Shown: in pieces, positions 1,440 through 31,714 of the stretch
Layout: each line of letters begins with the position of its first letter
Position numbering within the stretch: the first letter of the stretch is position 1
Source: Candidatus Flemingiibacterium sp.
Lineage (GTDB): Bacteria > Bacillota > Clostridia > Oscillospirales > CAG-272
Assembly (NCBI GenBank): GCA_045578725.1
Contig: JAZNKS010000096.1
Coordinates: 9,423 to 73,422, forward strand
Length of the DNA: 64,000 nt
Direction: 5' to 3'
Notes under the pieces: model-generated
What the model was told of the DNA's origin: nothing
Database searches by the model: none
Seen by the model: only the letters and a program-made list of their open reading frames with translations
Translations under genes and position numbers: made by a program

Positions 1440-1479
1440 GGGAGGATTCCTTTCATCGGAGGACATTTTCTGCCTAATA

Positions 1480-1560
1480 AGACGCAGATTATCGCCCTTT
1501 GTTCCCGGATCCGGCCATAAAATTCCATTATCCGGGAACTTTTTTTGATTTTCTGCGTCT
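1480..1560. repeat. Nested inverted repeat in the divergent intergenic region
   Basis: The outer arms AGACGCAGA (1480-1488) and TCTGCGTCT (1552-1560) enclose the inner arms GTTCCCGGAT (1501-1510) and ATCCGGGAAC (1530-1539), followed by T7. Confidence 0.6.
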
Positions 1561-1596
1561 AATCCCACGTAAACGAAATTCACGGAGGTAACGCTA

Positions 1597-3672
1597 TTGA
1601 AAAAAGCCGTTCTCATTCTTGTTCTCATCACTTCTCTTCTCATGACCGCACTCCTGTCCTCCTGCCATGCAGGCGCCGATACACCGCAGGATACCGATCC
1701 CGCTCCCGATGCCGCCCCCTCGCTGAGCGAGGAGGAAATCGCCGCCATTGTCGATGAGCAGCTCGCGCTCCTCGTCCCCGAGGCGCGTAAGGTAACATCC
1801 GAGGCGGAATATATCAGCAAAGCACCCGAGGCCTTCGATGCCATTCTCGCGCTCGGTCCGGATGCTGTTCCCTATCTGGAAAAGCTTGCCTCCGGCATTG
1901 CCGTGGGCGATGCCTCTGCCGACAATTACCGCCGGATTCTGGCCAAAGCCGCCTCCTATGCCATCGCACCGGAGCACTACGATGTCCTCTGGCCCTCCCC
2001 CGACGGAAGCCTTGCCGTCAAGGCCGTCCCGGACACCTTCCTTGGCATGGCCGAGCCGGACGGCTCCGTTGGCTACTCCCTCTCGCTGATCGATGCCTCA
2101 AACGGCATGATTAAAATCCCGACCTCCCTCACCGTCAGCGCCGAGGCGCTGCAGGAGGGTGTCAACGCCGTTTGGTCGCCCGATGGCCGGTATGCCGCCG
2201 TCCACCATACAGGCGAGCACGGCGGTACCGTCTATCTCTTTTCCGTCGAAGAACGTGCCTTCTTCCCGCTTCCGGGCAAGACCGAGCTGGATGCGGCTCT
2301 GGGTGAATTGATGGCCGCCTGGGATGCCGGATCCGGAAGCGTTCTCGCCTTTGTGCATCCCATCGTCACCGAATGGCCCGATGCCGACACCGTCCGGGTA
2401 TCCCTCACGCTGAAGGGAAGCGGCGATGCCTCGCTTGGTGCGGGCTTCTATACCTATCATCTGAAGAACCGCGCGATCACAGCCCTTGCCTATCACACCA
2501 CCGTCTTCTCCGACACAACGGAGGGCTGGTATACCGTTCCCCACCGATTTGTTTATCTCGTCCCCGATGCACCGACCAAAATCACCGCCTCCTATTTCCT
2601 GCTGGCCGGCCCGGATGCATCCGTCTGCGATGCCGTCAACACGCAGATTCTCGATTACATCCGTATGCTGTATGCGGCCGCTCCCGAAACGCCGACCCAA
2701 TCCGTGCTGAAGAGCGAGGTCATGCTGCTGGATGCCAATCGATTCAGTATCCATCTCTATGGCCAGCATACGCCGGCCGGCTCCGTCCAGCACATCAGCG
2801 ACGCCGGCTTTGTCTTTGATCTTCGCGACGGAAGCGCCCTTCCGCTCTCCGATCTCTTTGAACGGGAGGAGCTTAAAAAGATGCTCAGCCTGTATTTTGA
2901 CTCGCTGAAGGCGACCGATTATCCGACCACCTTCCTGCTGACAAAGCCCGAAGAGCTCCGCGCGGAATTTGAAAAACGCTTCCTTGAAGGCGGGGATTCC
3001 GTCCGCCTCTATGCATACTGGCTCGGCGAGGAGGCCCTGTATCTCTCGGCCGGCTGGTGCAAGGGCTACACCTTCGATACCGGCTTTGAATTTCAGGGCG
3101 ACCGCGGCTTTATCGCCGCCCTCCCCACCGGAAGCGGCTCCGCAGCGCGCGAGGTCGTCCTCTCCGCCTCCGATGACGGAAGCTATACCGTCGCAGGAAG
3201 CCTGACAGCGGGCGATGTCTGGTCCGGCTTCCGCCTCACGGATATGGCCTCCGGCCGTCTTCTCTGCCGCGCCGATCTCACCGGCAAATCCGCCTCCGTA
3301 TACTGGTCGCCCGATCATAAGCGAGCCGCCGTCACCTGCACCGTTCCCGGCATCACCACCGAAACGGTTCTGATGGATTCCGGCAAGGTCATGGCCATCC
3401 GTCTGCCCGATAAGACGGAGCTGTCCGAAAAAATCCGCGCTCTCCTTCCCGAGGACGGCATGGCAGAATCCTATGCGCGCTTCGCATCGGTTCTGCGCAG
3501 CTGGTATACCAATACTCCCACCGCGGCGATCATCGAATTCTGCCTCTCAAATCCCGGTGAAGCCACCGCCCTTGTCGGCAGCTACACCTTTGACACCACC
3601 ACGCTTGCCCTCACCAATCTCGAAGTTGCGCTCACTGTCGCCGAAAAAATCCCGCCGGCGCTGATTCCGTAA
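1597..3672 (+). CDS. Hypothetical lipoprotein, 691 aa
   Basis: TTG start is preceded by GGAGGT. MKKAVLILVLITSLLMTALLSSC is a lipoprotein signal. Repeated WSPDG/YWSPDH strings suggest beta-propeller-like blades. No family was recognised with confidence. Confidence 0.6.
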   Translation: MKKAVLILVLITSLLMTALLSSCHAGADTPQDTDPAPDAAPSLSEEEIAAIVDEQLALLVPEARKVTSEAEYISKAPEAFDAILALGPDAVPYLEKLASGIAVGDASADNYRRILAKAASYAIAPEHYDVLWPSPDGSLAVKAVPDTFLGMAEPDGSVGYSLSLIDASNGMIKIPTSLTVSAEALQEGVNAVWSPDGRYAAVHHTGEHGGTVYLFSVEERAFFPLPGKTELDAALGELMAAWDAGSGSVLAFVHPIVTEWPDADTVRVSLTLKGSGDASLGAGFYTYHLKNRAITALAYHTTVFSDTTEGWYTVPHRFVYLVPDAPTKITASYFLLAGPDASVCDAVNTQILDYIRMLYAAAPETPTQSVLKSEVMLLDANRFSIHLYGQHTPAGSVQHISDAGFVFDLRDGSALPLSDLFEREELKKMLSLYFDSLKATDYPTTFLLTKPEELRAEFEKRFLEGGDSVRLYAYWLGEEALYLSAGWCKGYTFDTGFEFQGDRGFIAALPTGSGSAAREVVLSASDDGSYTVAGSLTAGDVWSGFRLTDMASGRLLCRADLTGKSASVYWSPDHKRAAVTCTVPGITTETVLMDSGKVMAIRLPDKTELSEKIRALLPEDGMAESYARFASVLRSWYTNTPTAAIIEFCLSNPGEATALVGSYTFDTTTLALTNLEVALTVAEKIPPALIP

Positions 3673-3721
3673 GGACAGCTTCCGGAGCCGGAAGAATTTA
3701 TGGCCGAATTTGCACTTTCCT

Positions 3722-3750
3722 CTTGCAAAATCCGGCGAAATATGGTATAA
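3722..3750 (+). promoter_or_regulatory. Sigma-A-type promoter of the MATE gene
   Basis: TTGCAA (3722-3727), a 17-nt spacer, then TATAAT (3745-3750) with a TGG extended -10. Confidence 0.5.
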
Positions 3751-3791
3751 TAATCGGGTGTGCTCCGAAAGGCGCACCCGATTTTATTGAT

Positions 3792-5180
3792 ATGAGGTAT
3801 CGCCGCATGGCAAGAAGCATTTTCGCCCCTACGGATATGACGGTGGGCACCCCCTGGAAAAGCATCGTCATCTTCACCCTCCCCATGCTGATCGGCAATA
3901 TTGCCCAGCAGCTTTATAACACCGTTGACTCCATCGTGGTCGGCAAATATGTCGGCGACAACGCGCTGGCCGCCGTCGGAAGCGCCGCGCCCATTCTGAA
4001 TATGCTGCTGGTGCTCTTCATCGGCATCTCCGCCGGTGCGACCATCATGGTATCCCAGTATTTCGGCGCAAAGAGCCGCGAGGATCTTTCCGTCACCATC
4101 GGCAACTGCATCACCGTCACCGCCATCTGCTGTATTGCGCTGATTCTGGTTGCCTCGCCGCTGATAAGACCGGTGCTCGTTATGCTCAACACGCCCGAAT
4201 CCATCCTTGACTGGTGCGCCAATTATCTGCTCATTTCCCTTGTCGGCATGGCGGGCATGGCTTATTACAACATCCTCTCCGGCATCATCCGCGGCCTCGG
4301 CGACTCGGTATCCGCGCTGATCTATCTGCTGGTTGCCACCGTCATCAACATCATTCTCGACATTCTCTTCGTCGCGGGATTTGGCATGGGTGTTCCCGGC
4401 GTAGCGCTGGCCACCGTCATTGCGCAGATCACCTCCTCCGCCCTCTGCCTGATCAAGCTCTCAAGGATGCGGGAATTCTTCGATTTCAAAAAGGAATACC
4501 TTGTCCCGCGCGGCTCCTATGTGAAAACGATCGTCCGGCTGGGTCTGCCCTCCGGTCTGACTCAGGCGATCTTCTCCTCCGCCATGATTGTGGTGCAGTC
4601 GCTGACCAATCAGTTCGGCGAGCAGTTCATCGCCGCCAACGTTGTCGTCATGCGCGTGGACGGCTTTGCCATGATGCCGAACTTCTCCTTCGGCACCGCG
4701 CTGACCACCTATGCCGGTCAGAATGTGGGTGCCGGGCTTTATGACCGCGTCACCAAGGGCGCCAGGCAGGGCACGCTGATCGCCGTTGCCACCTCGGCCG
4801 CCATCACCGGCATCATCCTCCTCTTCGGCAAGGGCCTGATGGGCATCTTCACCGAAACCGCCGAGCTGGTGGAGCTCAGCTATCAGCTGATGATGATCCT
4901 CGCCGCAGGCTACATCGCCGTCGCCGTCACCCAGAGCCTTTCCGGCATCATGCGCGGCGCAGGCGATACCGTCACGCCCATGTGGATCTCGCTGATCACC
5001 ACGGTCGCCATCCGCGTGCCGATCGCTTACGGCATCTCGTACTTAACCCGCACCGCCGAGCTGCCCTACGGCCGTCAGGAGTGCATCCAGATCTCCCTGC
5101 TGCTGAGCTGGGTAATGGGTGCCGTGCTGACCGCCATCTTCTACCGCGCCGGCCGCTGGAAGAACAAGGCGCTGAAATAA
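3792..5180 (+). CDS. MATE family efflux transporter
   Basis: The start PWKSIVIFTLPMLIGNIAQQLYNTVDSIVVGKYVG is MATE-typical and the protein has about 12 hydrophobic segments. The start could be ATG 3792 or ATG 3807. The ORF-track start at 3723 lies inside the promoter. Confidence 0.85.
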   Translation: MRYRRMARSIFAPTDMTVGTPWKSIVIFTLPMLIGNIAQQLYNTVDSIVVGKYVGDNALAAVGSAAPILNMLLVLFIGISAGATIMVSQYFGAKSREDLSVTIGNCITVTAICCIALILVASPLIRPVLVMLNTPESILDWCANYLLISLVGMAGMAYYNILSGIIRGLGDSVSALIYLLVATVINIILDILFVAGFGMGVPGVALATVIAQITSSALCLIKLSRMREFFDFKKEYLVPRGSYVKTIVRLGLPSGLTQAIFSSAMIVVQSLTNQFGEQFIAANVVVMRVDGFAMMPNFSFGTALTTYAGQNVGAGLYDRVTKGARQGTLIAVATSAAITGIILLFGKGLMGIFTETAELVELSYQLMMILAAGYIAVAVTQSLSGIMRGAGDTVTPMWISLITTVAIRVPIAYGISYLTRTAELPYGRQECIQISLLLSWVMGAVLTAIFYRAGRWKNKALK

Positions 5181-5182
5181 CG

Positions 5183-5213
5183 AAAAAAATCCTCTCACCG
5201 AGAGGATTTTTTC
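5183..5213. terminator. Intrinsic terminator hairpin flanked by an A-run and a T-run
   Basis: AAAAAAATCCTCTC-acc-GAGAGGATTTTTT lies directly after the MATE stop codon. Confidence 0.7.
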
Positions 5214-5226
5214 TATGGATTTCCTC

Positions 5227-5255
5227 TTGACAAGCGGATAAAAACGTGATATACT
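5227..5255 (+). promoter_or_regulatory. Sigma-A-type promoter of the T-box leader and aspS-gatCAB
   Basis: TTGACA (5227-5232), a 17-nt spacer, then TATACT (5250-5255). Confidence 0.65.
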
Positions 5256-5269
5256 ATACATTGGAATAG

Positions 5270-5565
5270 TGCTTTGATGGAGCGAGTAGTACAGGGCCTT
5301 CATTTCCAGAGAGCCGCCGCAGGTGCGAGGGCGGCAATGAAGCTGTATGAAAAACACTCCGGAGCCGACGGAAGAAAACGCATCCTGTATGCGTCAGTAG
5401 AACCGTCCGTTCATCGCGTCAAGATGAGAATGAAGAGGGCATCCGACTCCGGTCGGAGGTCAATATGGGTGGTATCGCGGAAGCTGTCTTTCGTCCCATG
5501 GTGCAGAGAAATCTCTGCCGAACGGGCGAAATGCAGTTTTTTGTTTTTTCGCCGATCAATCTGTA
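5270..5565 (+). promoter_or_regulatory. T-box riboswitch leader with a probable Asn (AAC) specifier
   Basis: The canonical parts are present in order. These are the AG bulge AGAGAG (5308-5313), distal loop GGTGCGA (5322-5328) and specifier-loop string TGAAAAACA before the closing CTCC (5348-5360). They continue with stem III CCGAC/GTCGG (5443-5456), the T-box motif AATATGGGTGGTATCGCGG (5462-5480) and the terminator helix TTTCGTCC/GGGCGAAA followed by a T-run (5489-5542). Confidence 0.8.
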
Positions 5566-5587: not shown

Positions 5588-7318
5588 ATGTTAAGAACAC
5601 ATACCTGCAACGAACTGCGCATCGATCACATCGGCCGGAACGTTACGCTGACCGGCTGGATCGACACCGTCCGCGACCACGGCGGCGTTCTCTTTGTTGA
5701 CCTGCGCGACCACTACGGCATCACCCAGATCGTCGTCAATGACGATTCCATGATCGCCGGTATGCCCAAGGAAACCGTCATCCTCGTGGAGGGTGAGGTC
5801 ACCAAGCGCGACGAGGAAACCGTCAATCCCAAGCTTGAAACCGGTCTGATCGAGGTCCGCGCTTCGAAAATCGAAGTCCTCGGCCCCGTCAAGCTGAATC
5901 TCCCCTTTGAAATCGATGCTTCCACCGAAACCCGCGAGGAAGTCCGCCTCAAGTACCGCTATCTCGATCTTCGCAACAGGAAGATCCATGACAATATCGT
6001 TCTGCGCTCGAGGATCCTCTCCTTCTTACGCTCCCAGATGGAGGAGCAGGGCTTCCTTGAAATCCAGACGCCCATTCTGACCGCCTCCTCCCCCGAGGGT
6101 GCCCGCGACTATCTGGTTCCCAGCCGCAAGCACAAGGGCAAGTTCTATGCTCTGCCCCAGGCTCCCCAGCAGTTCAAGCAGCTGCTGATGACCTCCGGCT
6201 TCGACCGCTATTTCCAGATTGGCCCCTGCTTCCGCGACGAGGATGCCCGTCAGGACCGCTCGCCCGGCGAATTCTATCAGCTCGACTTCGAGATGGCCTT
6301 CGCAACGCAGGAGGATGTCTTCGCCGTAGCCGAGAAGGTCGTCTACAACACCTTCACGAAATTCTCCGACAAGCCGGTATCCGCACCGCCCTTCCGCCGC
6401 ATCACCTTTGCGGATGCCATGCTCCATTACGGCTCCGACAAGCCCGATCTGCGCAACCCGCTGATTATCCAGGATCTTTCCGACTTCTTTGCGACCATCG
6501 ACTTCCCGCTCTTCAAGGGAAAGCCCGTCCGCGGCATCGTGGCAAACTGCGCCGGCCGCTCCAAGAAGTTCTTTGAGGATTCCCTCAAATTCGCCCTCTC
6601 CGTCGGCATGAAGGGTCTTGGTTATCTGACCCTGGCCGGCGATGAATTCAAGGGCCCGATTGCCAAGTTCCTCACCCCCGAAAAGCGTGACGAGCTGGTC
6701 AACCTCTGCGGCATTAAGGACGGCGAAACCGTCTTCTTCATCTGCGATGCGATTTCCGTTGTCAACAAGCTGGCCGGCGAGATCCGCACCTGGCTCGGTG
6801 AAACCCTCGGCATCGTCAACAAGGATTCCTATGAATTCTGCTTCATCGTGGACTTCCCGATGTACGAACGCAACGAGGAAACCGGCAAGATCGACTTTAC
6901 CCACAATCCCTTCTCGATGCCGCAGGGCGGCATGGATGCGCTGATGAACAAGGATCCGCTGGAGATCTTCGCTTATCAGTACGATATCGTCTGCAACGGC
7001 GTGGAGCTTTCCTCCGGCGCTGTCCGCAACCACAATCCCGAAATCATGCAGAAGGCCTTCGACATTGCCGGCTACGGCGAGGAAGAGCTGAAGGCCAAGT
7101 TCGGCGCTCTTTATACCGCCTTCCAGTACGGAGCACCGCCTCATGCCGGCATGGCTCCCGGCGTTGACCGCATGATTATGCTGATCGCCGGTGAGGAAAC
7201 CATCCGCGACGTCATCGCCTTCCCGCTCAACGGCAACGCGCAGGATCTGATGATGGGTGCTCCGGGTGAGGTCACCGAGCTTCAGCTCCGCGAAGTTCAC
7301 ATCAAGGTCCGCGACTGA
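5588..7318 (+). CDS. aspS: Aspartate--tRNA ligase, probably non-discriminating given the operon context
   Basis: MLRTHTCNELRIDHIGRNVTLTGWIDTVRDHGGVLFVDLRDHYG is a bacterial AspRS N-terminus. FRDED, QLDFEM and GMAPGVDR match the class II motifs. GGAGG precedes the ATG. Confidence 0.95.
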   Translation: MLRTHTCNELRIDHIGRNVTLTGWIDTVRDHGGVLFVDLRDHYGITQIVVNDDSMIAGMPKETVILVEGEVTKRDEETVNPKLETGLIEVRASKIEVLGPVKLNLPFEIDASTETREEVRLKYRYLDLRNRKIHDNIVLRSRILSFLRSQMEEQGFLEIQTPILTASSPEGARDYLVPSRKHKGKFYALPQAPQQFKQLLMTSGFDRYFQIGPCFRDEDARQDRSPGEFYQLDFEMAFATQEDVFAVAEKVVYNTFTKFSDKPVSAPPFRRITFADAMLHYGSDKPDLRNPLIIQDLSDFFATIDFPLFKGKPVRGIVANCAGRSKKFFEDSLKFALSVGMKGLGYLTLAGDEFKGPIAKFLTPEKRDELVNLCGIKDGETVFFICDAISVVNKLAGEIRTWLGETLGIVNKDSYEFCFIVDFPMYERNEETGKIDFTHNPFSMPQGGMDALMNKDPLEIFAYQYDIVCNGVELSSGAVRNHNPEIMQKAFDIAGYGEEELKAKFGALYTAFQYGAPPHAGMAPGVDRMIMLIAGEETIRDVIAFPLNGNAQDLMMGAPGEVTELQLREVHIKVRD

Positions 7319-7378
7319 TTATCCGTTTTCCACCCCGCAGGCGCTCTGCGTCTGCCTTTATGAAAGGAAGCCATTTAT

Positions 7379-7660
7379 ATGGATAAATCCACCTTTTCCC
7401 GTCTGTGCAGGCTGAATCAGCTTGCGCTGACAGAGGCTGAGGAAGCCCGCTTCCTCGCCTTCTTCGAGAGTCAGGAGGCCGCCATGGCCGAGCTTGATGC
7501 CATCGACACCGAAAATGTCGAGCGCATGGTTCATGTCATGCCGCTTTCCACCGTTGTCCGCGAGGACAAGGTCATCAAGCGCTTCACCCGCGACGAGCTA
7601 CAAAGGAGCGCGCCCGAAACCACCGATGGGTACTGGCAGGTACCGCGTCTGGTAGAATGA
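7379..7660 (+). CDS. gatC: Asp-tRNA(Asn)/Glu-tRNA(Gln) amidotransferase subunit C
   Basis: 93 aa. LALTEAEEARF...ELDAIDTENVERMVHVMP...REDK is GatC-like, and the gene sits between aspS and gatA/gatB. Confidence 0.85.
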   Translation: MDKSTFSRLCRLNQLALTEAEEARFLAFFESQEAAMAELDAIDTENVERMVHVMPLSTVVREDKVIKRFTRDELQRSAPETTDGYWQVPRLVE

Positions 7661-7670
7661 GGTGAACCGA

Positions 7671-8843
7671 ATGAAACTCTATCTTTCCGAAAATCCGTCC
7701 GCCGCAAAGAACAAGGTCGCGCTGGACGATATGATCCTGACTAAGGATCTTCCCACCACCGCCGGCTCGAAGATGCTGGACGGTTATATGAGCCTGTTTT
7801 CCGCCGAGGTCGCCGACAAATTGACGGCCGCCGGCTTTGATATTGCAGGCAAGGTGAACGTTGGCGAATTTGCCATCGACCTGCTCGGCGAAACCTCCCA
7901 CTACGGCGCTGTTACCTCCGATGGTAAGCTGAGCACCGCATCCGCCGAGCTGCTCCGTGCAGGAGAAGTCAAGGCCGTTATCCATCTGGATGTCAACGGT
8001 ATGCCCCGCCGCGCCGCCGCGCTGAACAATCTCGTCTTTGTCAAGCCCACCTACGGAACCGTTTCCCGCTACGGTACCGTTCCCGCCGCCTGCTCCGGTG
8101 AAACCGTCGGCGTACTGGCCGCAAGTGCCGGCGATGCGAAGGAAGTCCTCGCCGCCGTCATGGGCCACGATGACAAGGACGGCACCAGCCTTCCCGCCGA
8201 CAAGTGCTGTCTGCAGGACGGCAAAATTTCCAAGGTCGTCATCGCCAAAGCCTTCCTTGAAAATGTCGATGCCGCCACCGCCGAAAAGATCGATGCGGCC
8301 AAAGCAAAGCTCGAAGCGGCCGGCATCACCGTTGCGGAAATCGACGGCTCCCTTCTGAAGGCCGCCAGGCTCGCCTGGAACATCTGTATGTCCGCCGAGC
8401 TCTGCAACAACGTTTCCCGCTATGACGGCGTGAAATACGGCTACCGCTCGGCGAATTACACCAACATCGACGAGCTGTACACCAATTCCCGCACCGAGGC
8501 CTTCGGCGAGCTTACCAAGACCGCCATTCTCTACGGCTCCGAAACGCTGTCCACCGAGAATTATCAGAAGGTTTATGACAAGGCCCTGCGCATCCGCCGC
8601 GTGATTTCGGAGGAGCTTGCAAGAATTCTTGCCGATGCCGATGCGATTCTGCTTCCCGCCTGCTCGAAGGCTTCCTACACCGAGGCTGACACGGCGGCAA
8701 ACCTCACCCTGTCCTTCGATGAAGCGCTTTACACCGCTCCCGCCTCGCTGACCGGTCTTCCGGCTGTCGCCGCCGGCGGTGTTCAGCTGATCGGCCGTGC
8801 TTTCGGCGAATCCGCGCTTCTCGATGCGGCCGCTATTCTGTAA
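7671..8843 (+). CDS. gatA: GatA-like amidotransferase subunit A, short (390 aa), with a degenerate amidase signature
   Basis: GAGGTG lies 6 nt before ATG 7671. TKD..TTAGSKML and VKPTYGTVSRYG align to the GatA strings KDN..TTCSSKIL and LKPTYGRVSRYG. In place of GGSSGGS it has GKLSTAS, and in place of GSDTGGSIRQPA it has HLDVNGMPRRAA. Confidence 0.75.
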   Translation: MKLYLSENPSAAKNKVALDDMILTKDLPTTAGSKMLDGYMSLFSAEVADKLTAAGFDIAGKVNVGEFAIDLLGETSHYGAVTSDGKLSTASAELLRAGEVKAVIHLDVNGMPRRAAALNNLVFVKPTYGTVSRYGTVPAACSGETVGVLAASAGDAKEVLAAVMGHDDKDGTSLPADKCCLQDGKISKVVIAKAFLENVDAATAEKIDAAKAKLEAAGITVAEIDGSLLKAARLAWNICMSAELCNNVSRYDGVKYGYRSANYTNIDELYTNSRTEAFGELTKTAILYGSETLSTENYQKVYDKALRIRRVISEELARILADADAILLPACSKASYTEADTAANLTLSFDEALYTAPASLTGLPAVAAGGVQLIGRAFGESALLDAAAIL

Positions 8844-8856
8844 GGAGGAGAAGAAA

Positions 8857-10293
8857 ATGAGATACGAAACCGTCATCGGTCTGGAGGTTCATATCGAGCT
8901 TGCCACCGAATCGAAAATCTTCTGCTCCTGCTCGGCCAGGTTCGGCGGCGAACAGAACGATCATGTCTGCCCCGCCTGCTGCGGTATGCCCGGTATGCTC
9001 CCGATTGTCAACCGTCACGTTGTGGATCTCGGCATGACCGCCGGCCTGATGCTGAACTGCGACATCAACCGCACCACCACCTTCGATAAGAAATCCTACT
9101 ATTATCCGGATCTTCCCTGCTCCTATCAGACCACCCAGTGGTTCGCCCCCGTCGCTGTCAACGGCCTTGTGGAGATCGAAACCTCCAAGGGAAAGAAGGG
9201 CATCCGTATCAAGCAGATCCACATGGAGGAGGATGCCGGTAAGCTGGTTCACGATGATTGGACCGACACCACGCTGGTAGACTTCAACCGTACCTCCGTT
9301 CCGCTCTGCGAGATCGTTTCCCAGCCCGATCTGTCCTCGGCCGAGGAGGTTGTGGCCTATCTGGAGCGTCTGCGCTCGCTGCTGCGCTTTGCGAAGGTTT
9401 CCGACTGCCGTATGGAGCAGGGCTCCATGCGCTGCGACGTCAACCTGTCCGTCCGCCCCGAGGGCTCGGACAAGCTCGGCGTACGCACCGAGATGAAGAA
9501 CATGAACTCCCTCTCCGCCATCGTCCGCGCGATCGAGTATGAAACGGCCCGCCACATCGATGCCATCGAAAACGGCACCGAGGAGCTGGTTCAGGAAACC
9601 CGCCGCTGGGATGACATCAAGGGCAAATCCTTCGCCATGCGCACCAAGGAAACGGCCGGCGATTACCGCTACTTCCCCGATCCGAACATCATGCCCGTTG
9701 TCATCGATGACGAATGGTTCGGCCGCATCAAGGCATCCCTCCCCGAATTCCCCGAAGTCAAGAAGGCCCGCTACACCGGTGAGCTGGGACTCAGCGATTA
9801 CGATGCCGGCCTGCTTTCGGACAGCCGCGCCTTCTGCGATTGCTTTGAAGGGGCTCTCGCCGTCTGCGGCAATGCCAAGGAAGCGGCCAACTGGCTGATT
9901 TCCGATGTCATGACCATTCTCAACAAGAAGCAGATGACGGTCGATGAGCTGACCCTCGACGGAAGAGGGCTCGGCGAGCTGATCAAGCTCGTTATGGACG
10001 GCAAGGTTCAGCGCGGCAATGCCAAGAAGATCCTCTCCGTCATGTTTGAGGAGGAGATTGATCCCGCCTCTTATGCCGAGGCAAACGGCTTCATTGTATC
10101 CAACGATACCGGTGCGATTGAGGAAACCGTCAAGCGCATCGTAGCCGCCGATCCCAAGTCGGTCGCCGACTACAAGGGCGGCAAGGAGAAGGCGCTGATG
10201 GCGCTCTTCGGAAAGTGCATGAAGGAGCTGAAGGGCAACTGCGATCCGCAGGTTCTGCGCACCATGCTTCTTGACTGCATCAGCAAACAGTAA
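8857..10293 (+). CDS. gatB: Asp-tRNA(Asn)/Glu-tRNA(Gln) amidotransferase subunit B
   Basis: AAGGAGGAG precedes ATG 8857. MRYETVIGLEVHIELATESKIFCSCS and MEQGSMRCDVNLS are GatB hallmarks. Confidence 0.95.
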   Translation: MRYETVIGLEVHIELATESKIFCSCSARFGGEQNDHVCPACCGMPGMLPIVNRHVVDLGMTAGLMLNCDINRTTTFDKKSYYYPDLPCSYQTTQWFAPVAVNGLVEIETSKGKKGIRIKQIHMEEDAGKLVHDDWTDTTLVDFNRTSVPLCEIVSQPDLSSAEEVVAYLERLRSLLRFAKVSDCRMEQGSMRCDVNLSVRPEGSDKLGVRTEMKNMNSLSAIVRAIEYETARHIDAIENGTEELVQETRRWDDIKGKSFAMRTKETAGDYRYFPDPNIMPVVIDDEWFGRIKASLPEFPEVKKARYTGELGLSDYDAGLLSDSRAFCDCFEGALAVCGNAKEAANWLISDVMTILNKKQMTVDELTLDGRGLGELIKLVMDGKVQRGNAKKILSVMFEEEIDPASYAEANGFIVSNDTGAIEETVKRIVAADPKSVADYKGGKEKALMALFGKCMKELKGNCDPQVLRTMLLDCISKQ

Positions 10294-10306
10294 ACAAATA
10301 CCACCG

Positions 10307-10336
10307 GGCCCGCTGTCATCAGGCAGCGGGCCTTTT
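10307..10336 (+). terminator. Intrinsic terminator after gatB
   Basis: GGCCCGCTG-loop-CAGCGGGCC followed by TTTT. Confidence 0.75.
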
Positions 10337-10391
10337 CGTGATTTCATCCGAAAAGTCCCCGCGAAATCCCACAGAATCTCCCCCCTGCCGA

Positions 10392-10420
10392 TTGACTTTC
10401 CTGGCTGATTATGGTATAAT
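10392..10420 (+). promoter_or_regulatory. Sigma-A-type promoter of the DUF1538/P-II operon
   Basis: TTGACT (10392-10397), a 17-nt spacer, then TATAAT (10415-10420) with a TGG extended -10. Confidence 0.6.
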
Positions 10421-10496
10421 GATAGTAATTGCGGATCCGCGCAAAATCCTACAGACGGAAGGTGTTTATTTGAATCCAAAACTCAAGGAAAAAACG

Positions 10497-11993
10497 ATGG
10501 AATCCCTGTCCGCCGTTCTTCCGATCACCGGAATTGTTCTGCTGCTCTCCATCTTTCTGATCCCGATGGAGCTGGGACGGATGGTCATGTTCGTCACCGG
10601 TGCCGTCATGCTGATCATCGGCATGGGCTTTTTCCAGCTCGGTGCCGAAATGGCGATGACTCCGCTGGGCGAGGGCATCGGCGTTCAGCTTTCAAAATCG
10701 AAAAGGTTTATCTTCCTGCTTCTCATCGCCTTCCTGATGGGTGTAATCATCACGATCTCCGAGCCCGATCTGCAGGTTCTGGCCGAGCAGGTTCCCTCGG
10801 TGCCCAACATGGCGCTGATTCTCACCGTTGCGGTCGGTGTCGGTATCTTTCTTGCCATCGCCATCGCCCGTATTATCTTCAAAATCGATCTTTCGATCAT
10901 CCTGATCGCCTTCTATCTTCTGCTCATCGGCGCCTCCTTTCTGGTTCCCGGTGATTTTGTCGCGGTCGCCTTCGACTCCGGCGGCGTTACCACCGGACCG
11001 ATGACCGTTCCCTTCATCATGGCGCTCGGTGTCGGTATCGCCTCCATGCGAAGCGACAAGAATGCCGCCAGCGACTCCTTCGGTCTGGTCGCCCTCTCCA
11101 GCGTCGGCCCGATTCTGGCCGTGCTGATCCTCGGCTGCTTCTTCAAGCCCACCGAGGCCTCCTACAGCCTCTCGGATATGGCAGATGTATCCACGACGCA
11201 GGATGTTGCAAAGGTCTTCTTCCACGGCCTGCCCGAATATGCGGGTGAGGTTGCCATTTCACTGGCTCCCATCGTCGCGGTCTTTGCCCTCTTCCAGCTT
11301 TTAAGCCGCCGCTATCACCGCCGTCAGATCCTTCGGATCCTCGTCGGTATCGGCTATACATACCTGGGTCTTGTGCTCTTCCTCTGCGGCGTCAACATCG
11401 GCTTTGCACCGGTCGGCTCCTTCCTCGGCGGTGCACTCGCCTCCCTGCCCTACAAATGGATCCTCGTACCGATCGGTATGCTGATCGGTTACTTCATCGT
11501 CAAGGCCGAGCCGGCCATTCAGGTCCTCAACCGTCAGGTTGAATCGGTTACGGACGGCGCCATCTCCGCCCGCGCCATGAACCGCTGTATGTCCATCGGT
11601 GTTGCGGTTTCGGTCGGCCTTGCCATGTTCCGCGTACTGAGCGGTCTGGCCATCCAATGGATCATCATCCCCGGCTATCTGATCGCGCTGGTGCTCTCAC
11701 GCATCGTACCGAAAATCTTTGTCGGTATCGCCTTTGACTCGGGCGGAGTAGCCAGCGGCCCGATGACCACCACATTCCTGCTTCCGCTGAGCATTGGCGC
11801 CTGTCTGGCCGTCGGCGGCAATCTGATGACGGATGCCTTCGGTGTTGTCGCGCTGGTTGCCCTCACGCCGCTGATCGCCATCCAGATCATGGGCCTCGTC
11901 TTCCAGATCAAAACCGCCAAGGTGCAGAAGCATCTCGTCCCGACCGCGATTCCGGCCGATGCCGACGATATCCTTGTATTTGTGGAGGATTAA
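10497..11993 (+). CDS. DUF1538 family integral membrane protein with two internal repeats
   Basis: About 12 hydrophobic segments. The diagnostic repeats are VAFDSGGVTTGPMTVPF and IAFDSGGVASGPMTTTF. An alternative TTG start at 10470 lies behind GGAAGGTG. Confidence 0.75.
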   Translation: MESLSAVLPITGIVLLLSIFLIPMELGRMVMFVTGAVMLIIGMGFFQLGAEMAMTPLGEGIGVQLSKSKRFIFLLLIAFLMGVIITISEPDLQVLAEQVPSVPNMALILTVAVGVGIFLAIAIARIIFKIDLSIILIAFYLLLIGASFLVPGDFVAVAFDSGGVTTGPMTVPFIMALGVGIASMRSDKNAASDSFGLVALSSVGPILAVLILGCFFKPTEASYSLSDMADVSTTQDVAKVFFHGLPEYAGEVAISLAPIVAVFALFQLLSRRYHRRQILRILVGIGYTYLGLVLFLCGVNIGFAPVGSFLGGALASLPYKWILVPIGMLIGYFIVKAEPAIQVLNRQVESVTDGAISARAMNRCMSIGVAVSVGLAMFRVLSGLAIQWIIIPGYLIALVLSRIVPKIFVGIAFDSGGVASGPMTTTFLLPLSIGACLAVGGNLMTDAFGVVALVALTPLIAIQIMGLVFQIKTAKVQKHLVPTAIPADADDILVFVED

Positions 11994-11996
11994 CGT

Positions 11997-12692
11997 ATGG
12001 ATAACAACAACAAGCAAGCCTACCGGATGCTCGTGCTCATCACCAATCCCAAGCTGGCCGTGAAGGCCGAAGCGCTTCTGCGCTCCGCCTCGATCCCGGT
12101 TTCCTATCAGCTGAATGCCGAGGGCACCGCCTCCAGCGAGATCATGGATATGCTGGGTCTTGGCAGCATTGACAAGAGCCTGATTGTCAGCTTCTTAACC
12201 AAATCCGCCGCCGATGAAACCCTGCTCCGCCTCCGCCGCAAGCTGAGGCTCGGCAGTACCAACAGCGGCATCGCCTTCACGGTTCCACTCTCCGGAGCCA
12301 GCAAGGCCATCCTCGATATGATCGCCATGCGCAGCGATGTGTCCTCAAAGAATGAACGAAAGGGTGAGATTTCCTTGGAAGAAATGAATTTTATGCTGAT
12401 TGCCGCCATCGTACACCGCGGCTTTTCCGAAAACGTTATGGAAGCGGCCCGCTCGGCCGGTGCCAGCGGCGGAACCGTTCTCCACAGCCGCCAGATCGAC
12501 AGCGAGGCCATCACCAGCAAGTGGGGTCTGAACGGTCAGGAGGAAAAGGAGATCGTGCTGATTCTGGCCGGTGAAGCCAACAAGGCCGGCATCATGAAGG
12601 CCATCAGCGAAAAATGCGGTGTCCACAGCGAGGCCAAGGGGCTTGTGCTCTCCCTGCCTATCGATTCGGTCATCGGTCTCCAGATCTATTGA
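11997..12692 (+). CDS. P-II-like signalling protein with two tandem P-II-fold halves, 231 aa
   Basis: The start is 3 nt after the DUF1538 stop, behind GGAGGA. The two halves (YRMLVLITNPKLA... and NFMLIAAIVHRGFS...) have a beta-alpha-beta pattern. This is the usual genomic partner of DUF1538 proteins, as I recall. Confidence 0.6.
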   Translation: MDNNNKQAYRMLVLITNPKLAVKAEALLRSASIPVSYQLNAEGTASSEIMDMLGLGSIDKSLIVSFLTKSAADETLLRLRRKLRLGSTNSGIAFTVPLSGASKAILDMIAMRSDVSSKNERKGEISLEEMNFMLIAAIVHRGFSENVMEAARSAGASGGTVLHSRQIDSEAITSKWGLNGQEEKEIVLILAGEANKAGIMKAISEKCGVHSEAKGLVLSLPIDSVIGLQIY

Positions 12693-12718
12693 TTACCGCC
12701 AATCGGGAGGATTTGATT

Positions 12719-14647
12719 ATGGATAAGCTTCGCCGCGGAATCCATCTGGATTTCCATACTCTGCCCGGCATTTATGATTTTGCCGCCAATTTCGATGCGG
12801 ATGCCTTTGCATCCACCCTCGCCGATGCGCACGTTGAAATCATCAATGTCTTCGCGCGCTGCAACATCGGCTTCTCCTACTATCCCACGAAAATCGGCGT
12901 GCCCTATCCGGGCATGAAGATCGACCTGCTCGGCGAGATGATCCGGGCCTGCCATGCGCGTTCCATCAAGGTGGTTGCCTATGTCAATGCCGGCATCAAT
13001 CACGAACTCTGCCGTCTCCATCCCGAATGGTGCCAGATCAACGAAAACGGGCAGATCCGCACCGGCGATCCGGCCAACAACAACTGCTTCCGCACCCCCT
13101 GCTACAATACGGGCTGGGGTGAGCATCTGCTGGCCGAAATCCGCGAGATTGTCGAGAATTACGATGTGGACGGCATCTTCACCGACTGCATGATGCTCCG
13201 TCCCTGCTGGTGCGACAAGTGCACGGCCGATATGAAGGCTGAGGGGATCGACATCACCAACCGCGCCGCCGTCACCGAATTCGCTCACCGGCAGATTCTC
13301 GACACGGTGCGAAAAATCCGCGAAATCATTCCCGAGGGCAAGCTCTTCCATCCCAACAGCTTAAAGCACGATGAGGTGGATGCCTGGCAGACCCATGCCG
13401 AGGTGGAGGTTCTCCCCAGCGGCAGCTGCTGGAATTACGACAGCTTCCTGCCCGAAGCCTCCTATATGCGCACCCTCTATGGGCAGGTTCTCTATATGAC
13501 CGGCCGCTTCCAGTCCTCCTGGGGCGATTTCGGCGGCCTGCGCACGAAGGCATCCATCGAAAACGATATCTACGATGCCCTCACAGCCGGTGTTCAGTAT
13601 TCGGTTGGCGACCATATGCACCCCGCCGATGGTCTGATTGGCGATATGTACCGGATGCTCGGCGAGATCTATGCGCGCACAAAGCTGTACGAAGAATACA
13701 CCGATGAGGCGAAATACCTGGCCGAGGCGGCAATTCTGCTCCATAGGGGCGGCGGTATGCCGCAGGCTGTGACCGGCGCGGTCCGGATGCTGGCCGAATT
13801 GAAGGTCGGCTTCGATGTCATCAACGAGGACCGTGATTTCTCCCTCTACCGGCTGCTGATCGTTCCGGAAAATATCGGCATGACCGACACGCTGATGACA
13901 AAGCTCCGCGCCTTTGCCGATCACGGCGGCAAGCTGATTTTCGCCGGCGGCAGTATGCTGAATCCCGCACGGAACGGCTTTGCGCTTCGTGAGCTGGATT
14001 CCCTGCTCTCCTATCACGGCCCGGACAACTCCAACGCCTCCTATTACATCACCCGCGAGGCGATCACCGGCGTGCGGATGAAGTATTCGACCTATTCCGG
14101 CGGCATTCTCATCAAGGCGGCGGACGATGCATCTGTCATCGCCGATCGCGTGGCCCCCTATTTTGACCGGCACTGGGACGGACAGCACGGCTATTTCTAC
14201 ACGCCGCCCGCCAAAGAGGACGGCTTCACAGCCGCCGCGCTCCGTGAAAATCTCGGCGTGATCAGCTTCGGCATCTTCTCCGCCTACTGCCGCAAGGCCT
14301 CCGTCTTCCACAAAAAGCTGGTTGCGCGGATGCTCGATGAGCTTCTGCCCGACCGGCAGATTCTCGCGCCGTCCCTTCCGTCCACCTCGCGCCTGACGCT
14401 GACCGGCACCGATTCCTACCGCCTGCTCCATGTGAAGGTCACCTTCCCCGAGCCGCGCGGCCCTGTCATGGATGCGATCGAGGAGCACGTCACCCTGCCC
14501 GCCGGCCGCGAAGTCACCGTGCGCGGCGAATGCGGTGAGGTTCTCCGTCTGCCGGACAAAACGCCGATTCCCTTTGTCGCCGAAAACGGCTGCACCCGTA
14601 TCACCCTCCCCGAAATCACCGGCTACGATATGTTCCTGCTCCGGTAA
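12719..14647 (+). CDS. Putative glycoside hydrolase; GHL6-like N-terminal TIM barrel with a beta-galactosidase-trimerisation-like C-terminal part
   Basis: GGGAGG precedes ATG 12719. RGIHLDFHTLPGIYDF...NVFARCNIGFSYYPT is what I recall for the hypothetical glycosyl hydrolase 6 family. The subfamily was not verified. Confidence 0.55.
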   Translation: MDKLRRGIHLDFHTLPGIYDFAANFDADAFASTLADAHVEIINVFARCNIGFSYYPTKIGVPYPGMKIDLLGEMIRACHARSIKVVAYVNAGINHELCRLHPEWCQINENGQIRTGDPANNNCFRTPCYNTGWGEHLLAEIREIVENYDVDGIFTDCMMLRPCWCDKCTADMKAEGIDITNRAAVTEFAHRQILDTVRKIREIIPEGKLFHPNSLKHDEVDAWQTHAEVEVLPSGSCWNYDSFLPEASYMRTLYGQVLYMTGRFQSSWGDFGGLRTKASIENDIYDALTAGVQYSVGDHMHPADGLIGDMYRMLGEIYARTKLYEEYTDEAKYLAEAAILLHRGGGMPQAVTGAVRMLAELKVGFDVINEDRDFSLYRLLIVPENIGMTDTLMTKLRAFADHGGKLIFAGGSMLNPARNGFALRELDSLLSYHGPDNSNASYYITREAITGVRMKYSTYSGGILIKAADDASVIADRVAPYFDRHWDGQHGYFYTPPAKEDGFTAAALRENLGVISFGIFSAYCRKASVFHKKLVARMLDELLPDRQILAPSLPSTSRLTLTGTDSYRLLHVKVTFPEPRGPVMDAIEEHVTLPAGREVTVRGECGEVLRLPDKTPIPFVAENGCTRITLPEITGYDMFLLR

Positions 14648-14665
14648 AACCGCGAAAGGCATTCC

Positions 14666-15868
14666 ATGAAAAAGAAAAACCTTCCCCTGATCTTTGTAAT
14701 CCTCTATCTTGCCTACACCTCGATCTACATCGCGCGGCTGAATCTTTCGATGGCCTCGCACGATCTCACCGTTGGGACCGGGCTTCTCACCACGGAGCAG
14801 TACGGCATTCTCTCCGGCGCATTTTTAGTCATCTACGCCCTCGGCCGGCTCATCAACGGCGGCCTGAGCGACCGGATCCGTCCGTGGATCATGCTCTGCA
14901 CCGGACTTGGCGGCGCGGGTCTTGCCAATCTGCTCTTCTCCCTCTTCCCGCCATTTATCGGGATGCTGATTCTCTGGTGCGCCAATGCCTGGGCCCAATC
15001 GATGCTCTGGAGCTCGGTACTCTGCGTTGTCGCCGCCAGCTGGGAGGAATCGAAGGCAAAAAAGATCACCTCCTATGTGGTCACCTCGGTAACCGTCGGC
15101 AACCTGATCGCCATCCCGCTGAGCAGCCTGATTATCACCAGCCTCGGTCTTGCCTATGCTTTTCTGCTCCCCGGCGGCCTCACGCTCGTGATGGGTGCTG
15201 CGGTCTTCTTCACGCTCCGCCACATAGGCCTTCCGACCGCGAAAGCGGATTCAGCCGCAGCTGATACGCCGCAGAGTGCTCCGGTATCCGAGCTTCTGAA
15301 GAAGCCGGATATCCGCCTCACCGTGCCGAGCGCCTTCCTGCACGGCATCATGAAGGACAACATCACCGGCTGGATGACGAAATTCTTCATTTTCACCTTC
15401 GCCATCGATCTGACCGAAGCCTCGCTGTTCGTCTTCTTCATCCCGCTGGTCGGATTCGTCGGCCGGATGATCTATCCGCTGATCTATCGGCTCTGCGGCG
15501 AAAAGGAGCATACGGTCAGCCTGCTCGGCTTTGCGATCTGTACCGTTTCCTCGCTCCCGCTGATTTTCGGATTCGGCGGCCCGATCCTTGCCATGATCTG
15601 CCTCTCGCTGATGTATGCGGCGGTTTCGCTGATCAACACGACCCTGCTTTCGATCTATCCGATTGAATATGCCAAATCCGGACGCGTCGCCACGGTCAGC
15701 GGCATCATGGATTTTGCCACTTATCTCGGTGCCGGACTCGGCTCGATGGTTTACGGCACGGTAATCGAAAACTTCGGCTATGCACCGATGTTCGCCAGCT
15801 GGGCGGCGGTATCCGTCCTGTCGATTTTCCTGACCGGCCGGCTGATCCGCGTTCTGAAAAAAATGTAA
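14666..15868 (+). CDS. MFS transporter, possibly of the organophosphate/sugar-phosphate antiporter type
   Basis: 400 aa with about 12 TM segments. The N-terminal YIARLNLSMAS string resembles the GlpT/UhpC-type motif. Confidence 0.7.
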   Translation: MKKKNLPLIFVILYLAYTSIYIARLNLSMASHDLTVGTGLLTTEQYGILSGAFLVIYALGRLINGGLSDRIRPWIMLCTGLGGAGLANLLFSLFPPFIGMLILWCANAWAQSMLWSSVLCVVAASWEESKAKKITSYVVTSVTVGNLIAIPLSSLIITSLGLAYAFLLPGGLTLVMGAAVFFTLRHIGLPTAKADSAAADTPQSAPVSELLKKPDIRLTVPSAFLHGIMKDNITGWMTKFFIFTFAIDLTEASLFVFFIPLVGFVGRMIYPLIYRLCGEKEHTVSLLGFAICTVSSLPLIFGFGGPILAMICLSLMYAAVSLINTTLLSIYPIEYAKSGRVATVSGIMDFATYLGAGLGSMVYGTVIENFGYAPMFASWAAVSVLSIFLTGRLIRVLKKM

Positions 15869-15870
15869 AA

Positions 15871-15905
15871 AAGGGGCTGTTGCATTTCGATGCAGCAGCC
15901 CCTTG
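15871..15905. terminator. Terminator-like hairpin of the GGGGCTGTTGCAT family
   Basis: AAGGGGCTGTTGCAT-ttcg-ATGCAGCAGCCCCTT forms a 15-bp stem with one G-U pair, directly after the MFS stop. Confidence 0.65.
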
Positions 15906-15967
15906 ATACTGGCTTCCCAATGCTCTATAATAAAACAAAATCATCCGCCGCCGGGAGGGACGCACTG

Positions 15968-16822
15968 TTGGATAAAAAAATCACCGATTCCCTCATCTTT
16001 TTCTATCAGAAGAATGAGGCTGTCTGCGCCGATGCGAATCACTATCCGCACACCCATTCCTTCTGTGAGCTGTATTTTTATCTTGGCGGCCGATGCTCCT
16101 ATATGATTGAGGAGGGCGTGTATCAGCTCTCCTACGGCACGGTCATCTTCACCCGTCCGGGCGAGCTGCACAGCGTCATGATCAACGAGGCCTGCACCTA
16201 TGAGCGGGCTTATTATCAGATTCATCCCCACGCGCTGGATTATCTGGGCGCGGGATCGGCCATGCGGTGCTTTCTGGAGCGCCCCTTCGGTCAGGAGAAC
16301 ACCCTGATTCTGGAGCGGCCGCTCATGGATGACTGCCTTTCGCGGATCCTTCGCACCGACGGTCGGTTTCTGAACGGCGATCCGGACCGCAATATGCTGG
16401 CGATGGCCGATTTTCTGGAGATTCTGCACACGGTGAACCGCGCCTTCGACGAGCGTACCGGCTCCCTTTGCAATGTTCCGAAGAATGAGCTTGTCAACCG
16501 CGCGCTCCGGTACATCAATCTGCATCTGCCCGAGCTGACAACCGTGGCCGATCTGGCCGACCGGCTGTTTGTCAGCCGCGAATATCTCTCCCGGCTCTTC
16601 TCCGAGGCGATGGGCATCACGCTGATCCGCTACATCACGCGCAAGCGGATCGAGATGGCCAAATCCCTTCTTGCGCAGGGAAAATCGCTGGAGGAGGTCT
16701 GCAGCGCCTGCGGCTGGCAGGATTATTCCTATTTCATCTCGGTCTTCCGCCGCGAAACCGGCATCACACCGCTCAAATTCCAGCAGACCAACCGTCTGCT
16801 GACCCAAGGAATCGAGATATGA
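15968..16822 (+). CDS. AraC family transcriptional regulator (cupin plus HTH)
   Basis: The C-terminal YINLH...SREYLSRLFSEAMGITLIRYITRKRIEMAKSLL...ISVFRRETGITPLKF is an AraC HTH. I chose the TTG start at 15968 behind GGGAGGGA because the ORF-track start at 15890 lies inside the preceding terminator hairpin. Confidence 0.8.
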   Translation: MDKKITDSLIFFYQKNEAVCADANHYPHTHSFCELYFYLGGRCSYMIEEGVYQLSYGTVIFTRPGELHSVMINEACTYERAYYQIHPHALDYLGAGSAMRCFLERPFGQENTLILERPLMDDCLSRILRTDGRFLNGDPDRNMLAMADFLEILHTVNRAFDERTGSLCNVPKNELVNRALRYINLHLPELTTVADLADRLFVSREYLSRLFSEAMGITLIRYITRKRIEMAKSLLAQGKSLEEVCSACGWQDYSYFISVFRRETGITPLKFQQTNRLLTQGIEI

Positions 16823-31499: not shown

Positions 31500-31637
31500 C
31501 CCTCCGTCCGTTTTCCTACATTATAGCACAAGCGGCGGCACTTGTCAAGAGACGTTCCGCTTGGCGGGCGCTGAAAGCCGTTGGTTCCCAAAGCAAACAA
31601 ATTCCTTTGTGCAGAATGACGAAAATAAAATTCCCTC

Positions 31638-31666
31638 TTGCGTTTGCTCGACGGTTATGGTATACT
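31638..31666 (+). promoter_or_regulatory. Sigma-A-type promoter of SBP-like paralog 1
   Basis: TTGCGT (31638-31643), a 17-nt spacer, then TATACT (31661-31666) with a TGG extended -10. Confidence 0.5.
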
Positions 31667-31714
31667 GAATACAGCGAAAGCTCTACAGAATACCAACGAA
31701 AGGATGAACCCGCT

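Follow-up and report, generated by a model that had tools for sequence, protein, structure and literature searches.

A GatA homologue without a catalytic triad is conserved in asparagine-specific T-box-aspS-gatCAB operons of uncultured Clostridia

The tRNA-dependent amidotransferase GatCAB is commonly viewed as a glutamine-dependent enzyme in which a glutaminase site and a transamidase site are coupled through an ammonia tunnel. Here we describe an operon whose GatA subunit departs from this view. It lies in a 64,000-nucleotide (nt) stretch of DNA from Candidatus Flemingiibacterium sp. (GenBank assembly GCA_045578725.1, contig JAZNKS010000096.1, forward-strand positions 9,423 to 73,422), hereafter called the window. 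A promoter-like sequence, an asparagine-specific T-box leader, the aspartyl-tRNA synthetase (AspRS) gene aspS, gatC, a gatA homologue that we designate gatA′, and gatB follow one another (Table 1), and from this arrangement they are predicted to form one transcription unit. The four genes are closely packed, with spacers of 10 nt between gatC and gatA′ and 13 nt between gatA′ and gatB, and the ATG of gatA′, 10 nt past the gatC stop codon, is served by an AGGTGA ribosome-binding site.

The product of gatA′ was recognized as a GatA homologue in an initial annotation made from the DNA letters alone, and Pfam (family Amidase), the closest relatives of known structure (all of them GatA) and an AlphaFold model agree with this assignment. 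Specifically, the protein matches the Pfam Amidase profile PF01425 with 167.8 bits (gathering score 27), and its best sequence relatives are the solved GatA structures (E 1e-54 to 1e-72). An AlphaFold2 model has a predicted local distance difference test score of 90 and a predicted template modeling (TM) score of 0.91, and the top Foldseek match of this model is S. aureus GatA (2df4_A; TM 0.90, root-mean-square deviation 2.5 Å). TM scores range from 0.74 to 0.90 against amidase-signature structures and from 0.88 to 0.90 against canonical GatA chains. In this model, the GatA fold is retained. The sequence nevertheless reaches only 239.3 bits against the GatA equivalog TIGR00132, whose cut-off is 481.1, although this is still its best NCBIfam family by a wide margin. 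When the GatA′ family is compared with 67 canonical GatA representatives, which were selected to carry the Lys/Ser/Ser (K/S/S) triad, 54 of the 89 near-invariant canonical positions are kept, including those of the GatA-specific motifs SR(F/Y)DG..YG and SR.E.FG; the 35 changed positions cluster around the catalytic pocket.

Parts of the canonical protein are also missing. The PF01425 match covers only profile columns 52-445 of 445 and therefore lacks the N-terminus, and both the profile and the structure-based alignments bear out the original estimate that about 60 N-terminal residues of a typical GatA are absent. Because the ATG and the ribosome-binding site sit just past gatC, this absence is a property of the gene and not a miscalled start codon. 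The same start is common to relatives, which have an invariant Met1 and conservation of 90% or more at Leu3 and Tyr4. The remainder of the protein had been thought to align to the GatA core without gaps. Instead, two loops are deleted, one of 6-7 residues ahead of the GGSS motif (including Asn143-Pro144) and one of 7-9 residues near the C-terminus (Pro442 to Pro450).

Active-site columns were read from HMMER alignments (phmmer and profile) to five solved GatA structures and from MAFFT alignments, all of which agree; canonical residues are given in S. aureus numbering. The canonical GGSSGGS is represented by G85-K-L87-S-T-A-S91, so that cis-Ser154, the first serine of GGSS, is replaced by Leu87. 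Likewise, DTGGSIRQPA is represented by D107-V-N-G-M111-P-R-R-A-A, which places Met111 in the column of the nucleophile Ser178. Both replacements are as first proposed: alignment to solved GatA structures puts no serine in either column, the amidase signature reads GKLSTAS without the catalytic serines of GGSS(G/A/S)GS, and no GGS string occurs anywhere in the protein. The claim that the catalytic lysine survives in the string TKD does not hold, however. Lys79 (of IKDN) aligns with Asp19 (of LDDM), whereas the lysine of TKD, K25, sits six positions further toward the C-terminus, in a variable column (K86/T19/A7/S7). With two errors of the initial annotation removed, the kept lysine and the gap-free alignment, GatA′ proves to be more degenerate than first thought. 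A register shift that would make Ser88 the cis-Ser was considered and rejected, given that its column holds T, S, V, A or L across the family.

These losses are shared by relatives. Among 120 homologues, the Lys79 column holds Asp in 119 and the cis-Ser154 column holds Leu in 116, and the nucleophile column is variable (A48/T43/M13/S13) with invariant neighbors D107, N109, G110, R113 and R114. In an independent comparison based on genome loci, 40 species-level genomes were found with a GatA′ family profile, and 40 canonical loci were taken from the same scan. The triad columns read K/S/S in 39 of the 40 canonical loci and D/L/x in 37 of the 40 family loci; the other three have a gap in the cis-Ser column, and their lysine column is still Asp. 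This contrast indicates that the pattern of triad loss is not due to chance.

The glutamine site is replaced as well. S. aureus Tyr309, Arg358 and Asp425, to which Nakamura et al. 2006 reportedly assigned glutamine binding, correspond to Trp236 (invariant in the family), Ala285 (Ala in 55%) and Ala352 (Ala in 49%), respectively. Glutamine-binding roles of the homologous yeast residues R334 and D418 are given in PMC4027206. Within the GatA′ family, the columns that have become variable are those of the nucleophile, Arg358 and Asp425, that is, the nucleophile and two glutamine-anchoring columns, and new invariants have appeared at Asp19, Gly65, Asp70, Leu87, Ala90, Asn109, Arg114, Glu144, Trp236, Asn246, Val248 and Leu281. 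Such a combination of variable catalytic columns and newly fixed neighbors is the pattern expected if catalysis has been lost while packing has been kept. At three further positions, reported as tunnel residues in work on S. aureus and H. pylori, Arg200 is kept, Glu stands in conservatively for Asp211, and Val takes the place of Thr175. As all three triad residues and three glutamine-binding residues are gone, GatA′ cannot act as a Ser-cisSer-Lys glutaminase and so cannot hydrolyze glutamine by the amidase-signature mechanism, in keeping with the initial suggestion that the subunit is glutaminase-dead. GatA′ fits the GatCAB framework but lacks three features that define GatA, namely an equivalog-level score, the catalytic triad and the glutamine-binding site. 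"GatA-like pseudo-glutaminase subunit" is therefore a more accurate name for it than glutaminase subunit.

These 120 homologues are the closest protein clusters, 60-72% identical to GatA′ and 383-420 amino acids long, and so the substitutions in the window recur in both these clusters and the 40 genome loci. A family-specific 13-residue motif, CNNVSRYDGVKYG, is present in at least 120 species genomes. Every genome listed with this motif is a metagenome-assembled genome (MAG), with labels such as Acutalibacteraceae, Oscillospiraceae, Ruminococcus, Candidatus Flemingiibacterium, Candidatus Copromorpha and Monoglobaceae, and where a source is named for a listed MAG, it is a ruminant or horse gut sample, a fecal sample or an anaerobic bioreactor. 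In public databases, such proteins go by "hypothetical protein" or "amidase family protein", and one full-length dead form carries the label GatA. The full-text literature searched yielded no account of a GatA without the triad.

The proposal that this operon is not in simple decay is borne out by three observations. The ratio of nonsynonymous to synonymous substitution rates (dN/dS) is 0.06-0.15 for gatA′ in genome pairs with a dS of 0.6-1.0, in which aspS and gatB give 0.02-0.08; 99 columns are invariant across 37 diverse GatA′ members; and the order aspS-gatC-gatA′-gatB is maintained in essentially every locus of the 40 species that a contig end does not truncate. The genes flanking these four are not conserved among relatives. 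By these sequence measures, gatA′ is under purifying selection along with gatC and gatB.

The regulatory element is similarly conserved. As initially proposed, the operon lies behind an asparagine T-box: the leader in the window scores above the gathering threshold of the T-box covariance model, carries an AAC specifier followed by a purine as well as the T-box core, and has counterparts in relatives. The specifier loop GAAAAACAC is found in all eight loci of the window's clade, a T-box core motif precedes aspS in 33 of the 34 loci, and AAC specifiers occur in both clades. T-boxes of the Acutalibacteraceae clade are reduced, as exemplified by that of locus L011 (positions 3653-3846; 49.7 bits, E = 5.5e-10), which has AAC followed by A at the specifier position. 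Because this score of about 50 bits is far below the gathering score of 93, a standard Rfam scan misses such leaders, which were recovered by motif search and E-value search. Equivalent leaders in about 26 other loci (L007 to L040) keep the T-box core and AAC plus a purine. At the gathering score, Rfam finds no T-box in the window besides the aspS leader. An AspRS and an amidotransferase switched on by uncharged tRNA(Asn) are sensible together only if the output of the operon is Asn-tRNA(Asn). The same T-box(Asn)-aspS-gatCAB layout, with AAC specifiers, is present in other Clostridia (L072, L089 and L090) in which the GatA triad is an intact K/S/S, and the dead form in the window is thus a derived version of an operon type that is already known.

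The partner proteins look intact, as had been noted for GatB and GatC, and both of these pass their NCBIfam equivalog cut-offs. GatC reaches 69.2 bits against TIGR00135 (cut-off 47.1) and belongs to Pfam PF02686. GatB reaches 589 bits against NF004012 (cut-off 338), carries a GatB_N domain (377 bits) and a GatB_Yqey domain, aligns end to end with solved GatB structures, and keeps 90 of 111 near-invariant canonical positions. Its kinase residues are intact. Several GatB changes are fixed family-wide (the window and L001-L040): R78K, F82Y and S93T near GatB Lys79, and also A65M, G147S, Q233H and D277N. Those near Lys79 suggest co-adaptation with GatA′, and the substitutions may reflect adjustment of either the tunnel or the subunit interface.

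AspRS scores 772 bits against NF001750 (cut-off 443), has the domains tRNA-synt_2, tRNA_anti-codon and GAD, and is 64-88% identical in related operons. From the operon context and the specificity of the T-box, the enzyme is presumed to be non-discriminating. Glutaminase activity of a mycobacterial non-discriminating AspRS is reported in a 2020 FEBS Letters paper, as indicated by its listing as reference 32 of PMC8406222; if such an activity were general, AspRS could be an alternative source of ammonia for a GatA-dead complex. In locus L008, the C-terminal part of a second AspRS-like gene (positions 44-931; 37% identical to the operon AspRS) lies immediately upstream of the T-box-aspS-gatCA′B operon, which gives this genome, at least, two AspRS genes. 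In a Caproiciproducens sp. MAG (L156, positions 417-5333), an orthologous-looking aspS, whose product is 66% identical to the AspRS of the window, is paired with divergent downstream genes for a live GatA and for a GatB only 44% identical to that of the window; the T-box core motif was not found in the 416 nt available upstream.

Loss of the triad is not confined to the GatA′ family. In an exhaustive profile search of 1.8 billion cluster representatives, 136 of the 150 best matches were long enough to score, and 62 of these 136 lack a live triad, a number that includes a few sequences that are merely N-terminally truncated. The triad-less forms are both short (about 345-430 amino acids) and full-length (450-500 amino acids). 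A neighbor-joining tree, which is rough and may suffer from long-branch effects, contains two large all-dead clades (20 and 17 representatives) and smaller groups. The dead GatAs of other, independent lineages always have GatC and GatB as neighbors and frequently belong to asparagine-specific operons (Table 1). In a further arrangement, found in the Clostridiaceae MAG contig JAAYCT010000040.1 (L081), a dead set directly precedes a live set. The dead GatA of this tandem carries VDD and DTGGAL, the live one carries IKDN, GGSSGG and DTGGSIRQP, and identity between the two copies is 47% for GatA and 63% for GatB. No T-box was detected in L081 at the Rfam gathering score, and no T-box core motif was detected upstream of the first gatC.

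Table 1. Positions of the operon elements in the window and layouts of operons with triad-less GatA (gatA*) from other lineages
Locus	Feature	Coordinates	Strand	Remarks
Window	Putative sigma-70-like promoter, TTGACA-17-TATACT plus extended TG	5227..5255	+	Consensus match only, 11/12; directly upstream of T-box leader
Window	T-box leader, RF00230	5265..5501	+	103.7 bits versus gathering score 93; full model covered
Window	Specifier AAC (Asn) of T-box leader	5353-5355	+	Inside GAAAAACA
Window	T-box core GGGTGGTATCGCG	5467-5479	+	
Window	aspS, bacterial-type AspRS with GAD domain	5588..7318	+	Pfam and NCBIfam
Window	gatC, 93 amino acids	7379..7660	+	PF02686; TIGR00135
Window	gatA′, triad-less, N-terminally shortened GatA homologue, 390 amino acids	7671..8843	+	
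Window	Asp19 codon, column of catalytic Lys79	7725..7727	+	
Window	GKLSTAS, remnant of GGSSGGS	7923..7943	+	Leu87 in cis-Ser154 column
Window	LDVNGMPRRAA, remnant of SDTGGSIRQPA	7986..8018	+	Met111 in nucleophile Ser178 column
Window	Trp236 codon, column of glutamine-binding Tyr309	8376..8378	+	
Window	Ala285 codon, Arg358 column	8523-8525	+	
Window	Ala352 codon, Asp425 column	8724-8726	+	
Window	gatB, 478 amino acids, intact kinase/transamidase subunit	8857..10293	+	Pfam and NCBIfam
P0165 (L088)	T-box-like motif with AAC, aspS-gatC-gatA*-gatB			gatB cut by contig end
P0145 (L289)	T-box-like motif with AAC, aspS-gatC-gatA*-gatB			
P0270 (L086)	699-amino-acid AspRS-GatC fusion, then full-length 476-amino-acid dead GatA (T/L/D); preceded by T-box core motif and GAAGAACA (AAC)	5888-9431		
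P0146 (L084)	Plain gatC-gatA*-gatB			
P0251 (L087)	Plain gatC-gatA*-gatB			
P0180 (L288)	Plain gatC-gatA*-gatB			
P0279 (L081)	Tandem gatC-gatA*-gatB-gatC-gatA(live)-gatB	9681-16247		Clostridiaceae MAG JAAYCT010000040.1; also L082, L083

On balance, we lean toward the hypothesis that GatA′ is a non-catalytic scaffold that acts with GatC and GatB as an ammonia-using Asp-tRNA(Asn) amidotransferase, a reading in which we infer complex formation, amidation and ammonia as the nitrogen donor from sequence data. Uncharged tRNA(Asn) would cause the T-box to let transcription read through into aspS-gatC-gatA′-gatB, AspRS would load aspartate onto tRNA(Asn), and GatB would phosphorylate the aspartate side chain and then amidate it to asparagine. 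GatA′ would no longer be the source of ammonia. Rather, the pseudo-glutaminase would be retained as a structural partner required by GatB and GatC, and it probably continues to provide the GatA side of the tunnel for ammonia. Free NH3/NH4+ would supply the amide nitrogen, and the gut, rumen and digester habitats concerned are expected to be rich in ammonia. Use of free ammonia by GatB is the most economical interpretation, and it is supported by the ammonium-driven transamidation described in the literature. Specifically, yeast GatFAB transamidates with 20 mM NH4Cl in place of glutamine, bypassing the glutaminase, and truncations that loosen the structure around the GatA site favor the use of ammonia (PMC4027206). 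Such ammonia-driven GatCAB or GatFAB reactions in vitro are laboratory bypasses of an active glutaminase, whereas in GatA′ the glutaminase has been genetically abolished, and this state is conserved in nature. GatA depends on GatC both for its folding and for its binding to GatB (PMC2330236).

Several points weigh against this hypothesis. The pocket substitutions S154L, T175V, Y309W and E354L are hydrophobic and may plug the entrance of GatA rather than open it, in which case ammonia would have to reach GatB by a different route. Canonical enzymes need millimolar NH4+. The tandem of dead and live gatCAB sets in L081 implies that dead sets need not work alone. The main uncertainty is the possible presence of a canonical gatA or another glutaminase elsewhere in the same genomes. 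Searches by tblastn with GatA′, canonical GatA, GatB and AspRS found no second gatA, gatB or aspS in the window or in the flanks of about 12 kb at the 40 related loci, except for the AspRS fragment of L008. A scan of the genome collection with a canonical Oscillospiraceae GatA was dominated by the universal NMDEFAMG pattern, and its negative outcome, in which none of 80 loci came from an assembly that also contains a family member, is uninformative.

This uncertainty gives rise to the strongest competing explanation, which we consider unlikely though well short of negligible. The operon could be a specialized second set, such that a canonical GatA or another glutaminase encoded elsewhere supplies ammonia or swaps into the complex, and GatA′ is only a scaffold or regulator of an asparagine-specific transamidosome. 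The L081 arrangement provides a precedent, the second AspRS gene beside the operon in L008 indicates that duplication of pathway genes occurs, and two gatCAB sets, of which one belongs to a T-box operon, are reported for C. acetobutylicum (Saad 2012, cited in PMC4206432). An accessory role is harder to reconcile with an operon that has its own closely spaced gatC, gatA′ and gatB, all three under purifying selection, and with the absence of a second gatA or gatB from the window and from the flanks searched at the 40 loci. Moreover, related Oscillospirales carry a live GatA in the same T-box(Asn)-aspS-gatCAB context, which argues for positional orthology rather than an extra copy.

The remaining explanations are given less weight. 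GatA′ might have acquired a new function if its remodeled pocket, with new invariants at Asp19, Asp70, Asn109, Arg114, Trp236, Asn246, Cys141 and His166, uses a different mechanism to bind or hydrolyze another nitrogen donor. In 93-100% of members, the new residue is indeed fixed at about a dozen of the replaced active-site positions, without drift. We nonetheless regard this prospect as improbable, since the old catalytic columns contain no new conserved nucleophile (the nucleophile column is A/T/M/S) and most of the new pocket residues are hydrophobic or small. Comparably improbable is a role without amidation, wherein the complex would bind or phosphorylate Asp-tRNA(Asn), for example to sequester or proofread mischarged tRNA. 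The loss of the ammonia source and the intact kinase residues of GatB fit this role, but GatB also keeps transamidase-type conservation, and the asparagine T-box co-induces the very AspRS that makes Asp-tRNA(Asn), so that a lack of amidation would increase mistranslation exactly when asparagine is short. Finally, the failed equivalog cut-off and the lost catalytic residues could by themselves be read as signs of pseudogene decay, misassembly or an artefact of sequencing. This explanation is already refuted and retains almost no probability: the reading frame is intact and has a ribosome-binding site, identical substitutions recur across 120 protein clusters as well as in at least 120 independent genome assemblies, dN/dS is about 0.1 and not near the neutral value of 1, and AlphaFold2 predicts the fold with confidence.

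Pfam scans of 30 further open reading frames (ORFs) of the window did not find asnS, glnS, asnA, asnB or glnA. Downstream of gatB (10338-12692) lie a gene for a DUF1538 membrane protein (551 amino acids, 456 bits) and an adjacent 231-amino-acid ORF without a Pfam match, and a promoter-like site (10392-10420) precedes these two. This protein and the ORF next to it, as well as a MATE pump encoded upstream, were considered as nitrogen suppliers and rejected, being not linked to the operon in relatives. Farther away, a tRNA-Leu(GAG) gene (56273-56357) lies within the 5′ portion of the longest ORF assigned to a class I Trp/Tyr-type tRNA synthetase gene (56169-57548), so the synthetase must actually start further downstream. 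Six long ORFs (450-690 amino acids, with a coding-like GC content at third codon positions) have no Pfam match at E ≤ 1e-5: 1597-3672, 31607-33211, 47547-48899, 48995-50419, 50619-52103 and 52169-53647.

GatA′ resembles canonical GatA (S. aureus 2DF4, T. maritima 3AL0 and P. aeruginosa 4WJ3) in its fold, its position between gatC and gatB and its GatA-specific motifs. It differs in that the triad Lys79/cis-Ser154/Ser178 has become Asp/Leu/variable, the glutamine site has been replaced, and the N-terminus and two loops are missing. The regulatory logic is the same as in the T-box(Asn)-aspS-gatCAB operon of C. acetobutylicum, which likewise combines a tRNA(Asn)-sensing T-box, AspRS and GatCAB, as far as Saad et al. 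2012 is represented by its citation in PMC4206432. That a GatA-GatC pair can be repurposed is evident from the derived pair AtzE-AtzG (PDB 6C62), which is among the structural matches of the GatA′ model; AtzE keeps an active amidase site without a GatB partner, whereas GatA′ keeps GatB without an active site. A common theme is also found in AsnA, as compared with AsnB, and in one-domain nicotinamide adenine dinucleotide (NAD) synthetase (PMC3376133), which retain amidation but draw their nitrogen from free ammonia instead of glutamine. Those enzymes simply have no glutaminase module, whereas the operon described here keeps the module as a non-catalytic subunit. The P. aeruginosa protein Tse8, a GatA-like type VI toxin (bioRxiv 10.1101/733030), also acts through interaction with the transamidosome and not through a housekeeping glutaminase role, but it is a secreted toxin from an unrelated context, whereas GatA′ is an operon-encoded subunit.

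A broader proposal, to which we give slightly less than even credence, is that these operons represent a widespread class of tRNA-dependent amidotransferase that is unreported in the literature searched. In uncultured anaerobic Clostridia, GatA would serve as a scaffold or ammonia conduit, and Asn-tRNA(Asn) would be made from free ammonia under T-box control. The conversion would have been repeated in several GatA lineages, and repeatedly in aspS-gatCAB operons dedicated to asparagine.

The hypothesis is directly testable with recombinant proteins and should be of interest to the aminoacyl-tRNA field. These genes are currently mislabeled in annotated genomes and metabolic models of Clostridia from the gut and rumen, such that the names "hypothetical" and "amidase" hide the pathway and the name GatA implies a dependence on glutamine. 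GatA′ also offers a natural experiment on the non-catalytic roles that GatA plays for GatB, including folding, tRNA handling and tunnel gating. If the hypothesis is true, nitrogen for asparaginyl-tRNA enters by another route in these Clostridia, and skipping glutamine would save one ATP per asparagine in habitats that are rich in ammonia and poor in energy.

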